Shown: positions 3,530 to 3,851 of the stretch, piece by piece
Numbering within the stretch: position 1 is the first letter of the stretch
Layout of the letters: every line of letters begins with the position of its first letter
Assembly: GCF_003334315.1 (NCBI RefSeq)
Contig: NZ_QOWR01000102.1
Origin: Escherichia coli
GTDB taxonomy: Bacteria; Pseudomonadota; Gammaproteobacteria; Enterobacterales; Enterobacteriaceae
Reading direction: 5' to 3' (one strand)
DNA: 3,928 nucleotides
Notes under the pieces: generated by a model
What the model saw: only the letters and a program-made list of their open reading frames with translations
Database searches by the model: none
Told to the model about the DNA's origin: nothing
Translations under genes and position numbers: made by a program

Positions 3530-3851
3530 GGTAGTGACTCCAACTTACTGATAGTGTTTTATGTTCAGATAATGCCCGATGACCTTGTCATGCAGCTCCA
3601 CCGATTTTGAGAACGACAGTGACTTCCGTCCCAGCCTTGCCAGATGTTGTCTCAGATTCAGATTATGTCGCTCAATGCGCTGAGTGTAACGCTTGCTGAT
3701 AACGTGCAGCTTTCCCTTCAGGCAGGATTCATACAGCGGCCAGCCATCCGTCATCCATATCACCACGTCAAAGGGTGACAGCAGGCTCATAAGACGCCCC
3801 AGCGTCGCCATCGTGCGTTCACCGAATACGTGCGCAACAACCGTCTTCCGG
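3530..3851 (-). mobile_element. IS1-family fragment (right inverted repeat plus 3' part of insB), reverse orientation, inserted into IS2 and itself interrupted at ~3851
   Basis: 3530-3552 GGTAGTGACTCCAACTTACTGATAGTG is the IS1 terminal inverted repeat (canonical GGTAATGACTCCAACTTATTGATAGTG, 2 mismatches). The following ~300 bp is the reverse complement of the IS1 insB 3' region with roughly 5-10% divergence from the canonical IS1 I recall. Similarity stops abruptly after ...CAACCGTCTTCCGG (about 3851). Confidence 0.85.
3545..3851 (-). pseudogene. insB: IS1 insB, 3' fragment (C-terminal ~100 codons of the InsB part of the InsAB' transposase)
   Basis: Translation ...[101 protein letters not shown] matches the InsB C-terminus. 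The frame is open to the IS1 break at ~3851 with no start codon; insA and the left inverted repeat are absent from the window. Confidence 0.8.

Follow-up and report, generated by a model that had tools for sequence, protein, structure and literature searches.

A truncated IS1 element with an IS1A-type body and an IS1F-type tail, nested between IS2-like and IS100 sequences in Escherichia coli

We analyzed a 3,928-bp stretch of Escherichia coli DNA (hereafter, the window) and find that the 322 bp of IS1 sequence within it are, with a probability of roughly 90%, the right-hand 42% of a mosaic IS1 element with a nested insertion history, in which an IS1A/B-type body is followed by a final segment of about 170 bp that is of IS1F type, with one extra change located in its right inverted repeat (IRR). 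The fragment switches affinity once between the two IS1 types, intact elements of the same type occur elsewhere in E. coli, the junction that the fragment forms with an adjoining IS2-like element is shared with two other chromosomes, and the order of nesting can be read from the ends of the three insertion sequences involved. An IS1A/IS1F mosaic remnant is an already known kind of feature, representing a common recombinant form of IS1, and its importance beyond correct annotation is slight, since the region is ordinary mobile-element debris.

The features of the window are listed in Table 1. In related E. coli chromosomes the pair formed by the integrase and phosphoethanolamine transferase genes is directly adjoined by a tRNA-Phe gene, and for this reason we place the window at the boundary of a genomic island of the tRNA-Phe type. 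Directly 3′ of the integrase stop codon, positions 493-530 contain a GC-rich inverted repeat (cccgggcaaatgcccggg) with a run of T 17 bases further on, which looks like a putative intrinsic terminator. In a comparison with the 1500-nt gene of E. coli ZH48, coarser than a base-level alignment, about 70 nt appear to be missing from the start of the transferase gene, which gives way to the IS2 end at 2245 (junction 2244/2245), and the listed 488-aa transferase open reading frame (815-2281, minus strand) begins at a GTG within IS2. The outer-membrane-protein gene that separates the transferase gene from the IS2-like element in relatives is absent from the window. All parts of the window have their best match in E. 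coli. The complete arrangement was absent from every complete E. coli genome and plasmid record searched, the best records in this set covering only 1-3529 or 2245-3851, and a scan of one genome per species with exact 40-mers spanning the IS1|IS100 and IS2|IS1 junctions returned 0 matches.

Table 1. Features of the 3,928-bp window (nt, position within the respective insertion sequence)
Feature	Window position	Strand	Remarks
P4-type tyrosine integrase gene, 3′ end	1-492	+	
Phosphoethanolamine transferase gene	815 to about 2244	-	
IS2-like element, IS2 nt 47-1331	2245-3529	-	95.3% identity to K-12 IS2A
IS1 fragment, IS1 nt 447-768 (3′ part of insB and IRR)	3530-3851	-	
IS1 right inverted repeat (IRR), GGTAGTGACTCCAACTTACTGAT	3530-3552	-	Read from sequence
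insB codons 67-167 and stop codon	3545-3850	-	Translation comparison
IS1F-type block, IS1 nt 597-768, 172 bp	3530-3701	-	15 mismatches vs IS1A, 3 vs K-12 IS1F
IS1A-type block, IS1 nt 447-596, 150 bp	3702-3851	-	2 mismatches vs IS1A, 18 vs IS1F
IS100 (IS21 family) left end, first 77 bases, starting TGTCACGAACGG	3852-3928	+	

As references we used the six IS1 copies annotated in E. coli K-12 MG1655. Published mismatch counts against the IS1A/E consensus are 9 for IS1B/C, 9 for IS1D and 73 for IS1F (PMC12428005), and the reference set can be considered sound because our own whole-element counts against IS1A (9, 9 and 73) equal the published ones. Once reverse-complemented, the fragment aligns without gaps to the last 322 nt of the 768-bp element, with 17 mismatches to IS1A and IS1E (94.7% identity), 18 to IS1B, IS1C and IS1D (94.4%) and 21 to IS1F (93.5%); the megablast E value against IS1A-type copies (8e-139) lies far beyond chance. 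The first-pass annotation had maintained that this is a divergent variant and not the canonical copy, and the identity to IS1A/IS1E bears this out, lying below the level (>99%) that the annotation itself associated with canonical IS1. The individual changes that it had singled out are likewise real. Two of them, GGTAGTG for GGTAATG at nt 764 (window 3534) and CTTACTG for CTTATTG at nt 750 (window 3548), are the only departures of the IRR from IS1A, which it matches at 21 of 23 bases; the third, ESCLK for ESRLK, is produced by C574T (CGC>TGC, window 3724) and corresponds to InsB R109C. Terminal inverted repeats of IS1 are about 23 bp long and start GGT(R)ATG, and an IRR identical to that of the fragment is found in a full-length element (L006) described below.

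Apart from R109C, the encoded InsB segment is the same as IS1A InsB (100 of 101 residues). It matches the NCBIfam model NF033558 (transpos_IS1) with an E value of 2e-24 and 86.6 bits, the alignment covering positions 125-199 of a 199-position profile; the incomplete protein accounts for a score under the 100-bit cut-off. Everything upstream of nt 447, comprising the left inverted repeat (IRL), insA, the frameshift site and the 5′ part of insB, is missing from the window. In intact IS1 the insA and insB′ frames are joined through a -1 frameshift at an A6C motif, and the absence of insA and of the frameshift site marks the piece as a fragment without placing it outside IS1. Because it retains one end and no more of insB than the 101 C-terminal codons, with neither insA nor the frameshift site, the piece is inert within the window, providing no transposase and having no capacity for autonomous movement, and no role is indicated for it beyond that of an inactive remnant.

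The differences from IS1A were initially described as scattered along the fragment, a description that does not hold, since 15 of the 17 are concentrated in the last 172 bp (nt 597-768), which leaves just two for the inner 150 bp. The contrast between the two blocks is significant with respect to both IS1A and IS1F (Fisher p = 0.0045 and 0.00018, respectively), and the IS1F-type block shows a single mismatch to the IS1F-type copies of O157 and O111 strains and none to three other IS1 copies (L006, L008 and L022). For site-by-site comparison of types, aligned with MAFFT, we used as a second IS1F reference the IS1F-type copy of O157:H7, which is devoid of two private changes found in K-12 IS1F. 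Wherever this copy and IS1A differ, the fragment presents 15 consecutive IS1A-like bases and then 14 consecutive IS1F-like bases, and the calculated probability of a separation this clean is 2/C(29,14) ≈ 3e-8. All 14 of these IS1F-type bases, located between nt 597 and nt 750, are synonymous; the remaining change in the block, T764C, lies in the IRR. Both differences in the IS1A-type block are private changes, consisting of the silent T486G (window 3812) and the aforementioned C574T. On the grounds of this block-wise switch in affinity the fragment is identified as an IS1A/IS1F-type mosaic, being neither IS1A/IS1E at ≥99% identity nor of IS1F type over its whole length. We infer that the mosaic is probably the product of gene conversion or homologous recombination involving IS1A-type and IS1F-type copies that resided together, a reading that stems from the pattern of sites and not from an identified pair of donor and recipient.

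A different origin for the same set of differences would be the divergence in place, by point mutation, of a canonical IS1A-type copy following its inactivation. The substitutions at nt 486 and nt 574 are private to the lineage of this locus and do resemble in-place changes, but the other 15 are common, base for base, to the independent intact elements L006, L007, L008 and L022, and 14 of these 15 are also found in IS1F-type copies. Moreover, a set of differences clustered in 172 bp, with those in coding sequence all synonymous, does not conform to the pattern of neutral decay. We hence deem in-place divergence very improbable as an account of the fragment, and for 15 of the 17 differences it is ruled out by the table of shared variants.

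The mosaic reading receives further support from complete 768-bp elements of the same composition, which we located on the chromosome of an E. coli isolate from fish gut (L006; NZ_AP026937.1, 761801-762568), on plasmid p573-4 of a chicken isolate (L007) and on the chromosome of a human isolate (L008). These elements are two to three mismatches away from the fragment, with L006 and L007 identical to it at 320 of 322 positions (99.4%). Over nt 1-596 the three elements are of IS1A type apart from a few IS1B-type sites, the exceptions in L006 and L007 being nt 262 and nt 444, and the transposase of the full-length mosaics is WP_103215986.1. A split ABC-transporter gene contains L006, with a 9-bp direct repeat (GCGTTTCCG) on either side of the element; IS1 generates target-site duplications of 8-9 bp, and this repeat is the normal signature of IS1 transposition.

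These same elements bear on the concern that the fragment could be an assembly or sequencing artefact, in which reads from different IS1 copies were merged into a chimera. The concern is a natural one, given that consensus chimeras classically arise from multi-copy insertion sequences and that the observed pattern is that of a two-block chimera. Nonetheless, the same 322 bases and their IS2 junction are present in two independently assembled complete genomes, and the same mosaic is seen in the form of full elements in many other complete assemblies. We consider an artefact even harder to credit than divergence in place, and on the evidence of the independent complete genomes and the full-length mosaics it was rejected.

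The possibility that the fragment corresponds to a separately named ISfinder isoform (e.g. IS1X1-X5, IS1N, IS1S, IS1SD, IS1G or IS1H), possibly originating from Shigella or another genus, deserves more weight. Several such isoforms exist, near-identical copies are found on plasmids of several genera, and the comparison made here relies on the K-12 copies, with the names given by the PGAP annotation pipeline as a proxy; furthermore, E. coli IS1X2-type copies have been found to be 96-98% identical to their ISfinder reference (PMC10569738). Against a separate isoform, PGAP assigns the intact 99.4% relatives to the IS1A or IS1B family, and the whole L006 element has 17 mismatches to IS1A in 768 positions (97.8% identity). 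By ISfinder convention, this level of identity falls in the range usually counted as one insertion sequence. We therefore regard a separate isoform name as possible but doubtful, and such a name would in any case leave the mosaic structure unchanged.

The second line of evidence on the history of the mosaic fragment comes from its neighbors. The IS2-like element differs from K-12 IS2A at 60 of 1285 positions; the initial 46 bp, and with them the left terminal repeat, are gone, and the intact IS1 IRR stands exactly in their place, with IS2 ending at 3529 and the IRR starting at 3530. Relatives of this element at ≥99% identity amount to 999 records, annotated only as “IS3 family transposase”, and its best matches in E. 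coli reach 99.5-99.7%. The chromosomes of E. coli NMBU_W05E18 and E. coli ESBL 15 carry the same IS2 truncation point and the same IS1 junction, and window positions 2245-3851 align to both of them as a continuous 1607-bp block across the junction (3716-5322 of locus L001 in NMBU_W05E18). In both cases IS1 agrees with the fragment at every one of the 322 positions, both private substitutions included, and in complete E. coli genomes this private pair (nt 486 and nt 574) was seen only in these two (next best identity, 99.4%). Unlike in the window, IS1 continues in these chromosomes to about nt 327, where it is cut by ISKpn34, and IS100 is not present. The fact that both carry the junction without IS100 makes the IS2(Δ46)|IS1 junction older than the IS100 insertion. 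In ESBL 15 the junction resides in the pheU island, about 5 kb from the tRNA-Phe (pheU) integrase; the junction thus circulates among genomic islands of E. coli, and pheU is its site in this strain.

The two halves of this shared block have nonetheless diverged unevenly. While the IS1 parts of the window and NMBU_W05E18 are identical, their IS2 parts differ at 26 of 1285 positions, 19 of which are extra departures of the window copy from IS2A. This imbalance, as seen in the aligned sequences, suggests later gene conversion in one of the IS2 copies, and shared descent of the junction block without such conversion does not fully explain the number of differences.

The IS1 fragment is terminated by IS100, which starts at 3852 and is inserted into IS1 after nt 447. 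Positions 3851-3928 (78 bp, including one IS1 base) are 100% identical to the region immediately upstream of istA in the IS100 copy of plasmid pAPEC-O2-MS1657-1. There, IS100 (locus L010, 2694-4646) interrupts an IS1 of IS1A type with a 5-bp duplication, TTTAG, and this duplication sets the IS100 terminus at TGTCACG. A 229-bp query spanning the IS1|IS100 junction matched IS100-in-IS1 structures in pAPEC-type plasmids. In these, however, IS100 follows IS1 nt 404 (nt 404-408), 42-43 bp away from the nt 447 site of the window. Given the different insertion site and the IS1A type of the interrupted copy, these are independent events, and IS100 has entered IS1 at least twice.

An insertion order of IS2, then IS1 and then IS100 follows from the way in which intact ends abut broken interiors, and it is confirmed by the comparison with NMBU_W05E18 and ESBL 15. 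In the history that most likely underlies this order, the IS2-like element was resident in a genomic island of the tRNA-Phe type, beside or within the phosphoethanolamine transferase gene. A mosaic IS1 then reached IS2 nt 46/47, either by simple insertion or by insertion followed by an IS1-mediated adjacent deletion, a type of event that is well documented (e.g. PMC10569738), and either route would have left an intact IRR against a truncated IS2. Two point substitutions subsequently built up in this IS1 copy, before the insertion of IS100 after nt 447 split insB.

The distribution of the variant indicates what it can be used for. The 322-bp query matches IS1 in 4965 of 5426 complete E. coli genomes, with only 26 records at ≥99% identity and most best matches at 94.4-95.0%, corresponding to the IS1A/B type. 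The 3′ 172-bp block, taken alone, has a ≥99% match in 2518 of the 9406 E. coli records with any match. Isolates of E. coli from fish, chicken, pig and human sources carry the full mosaic or forms nearly identical to it, on both chromosomes and plasmids, with plasmid matches at 97.8-99.4% in E. coli and at 97.8-98.4% in Klebsiella pneumoniae and Citrobacter freundii. Several E. coli strains in which a mosaic IS1 is the best match have at least 40 IS1 matches per chromosome, all types together. The initial proposal that the variant could help type the host lineage is not supported, because the 3′ block is common and plasmids of Klebsiella and Citrobacter contain close matches; information on lineage comes only from the private substitution pair in combination with the IS2(Δ46)|IS1 junction. 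The companion proposal, that the insertion could be dated against a near-canonical IS2, fails on its premise, since the neighboring IS2 is not near-canonical.

Other IS1 copies change type at other points. The breakpoint of L022 lies between nt 265 and nt 293, unlike that of the fragment, and two further copies (L019 and L020) contain patches only, also with different breakpoints. On the basis of these comparisons, E. coli IS1 diversity resembles a collection of recombinants whose two parental lineages are about 10% apart. Recombinant IS1 forms were reportedly described by Umeda and Ohtsubo in 1991 and by Lawrence, Ochman and Hartl in 1992, and the latter study is said to agree with this recombinant view of IS1 diversity. 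IS1 sequence types have been catalogued in K-12, including the IS1F type with its divergence of about 10% (PMC12428005), and gene conversion in K-12 has been reported for rRNA operons and prophages, not for IS1 (PMC4444293). Because IS1 variants form a recombinant series with different breakpoints, percent identity does not date an insertion. Divergence arrives in recombined blocks, and identity to one “canonical” IS1 consequently serves poorly both for dating and for recognizing a host, whereas nesting and shared junctions can be relied upon. Experiments in K-12 found appreciable transposition only for the consensus IS1A/E type. It is conceivable, though in our estimation improbable, that the combination of IS1A body, IS1F tail and T764C constitutes an unusually active form; if that were the case, its spread could explain why chromosomes of some strains with this type as best match contain 40 or more IS1 matches.

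With regard to known elements, the fragment can be set against three groups of IS1 copies. Relative to IS1A/IS1E, the K-12 consensus to which IS1R of R100 is near-identical, it spans just 42% of the element and is 98.7% identical over nt 447-596, with its differences falling for the most part beyond that point. Relative to K-12 IS1F the situation is reversed, with 98.3% identity over the 3′ 172 bp and only 88% over nt 447-596, and the premature stop of the K-12 IS1F insB7 gene is not present in the fragment; from the IS1F-type copies of O157:H7 and O111, the 3′ 172 bp differ at nt 764 only. The full-length mosaics L006 and L007 have the IS1A body, the IS1F tail and the 764C IRR in common with the fragment, and the window copy departs from them in its interruption by IS100 and in its two additional substitutions.
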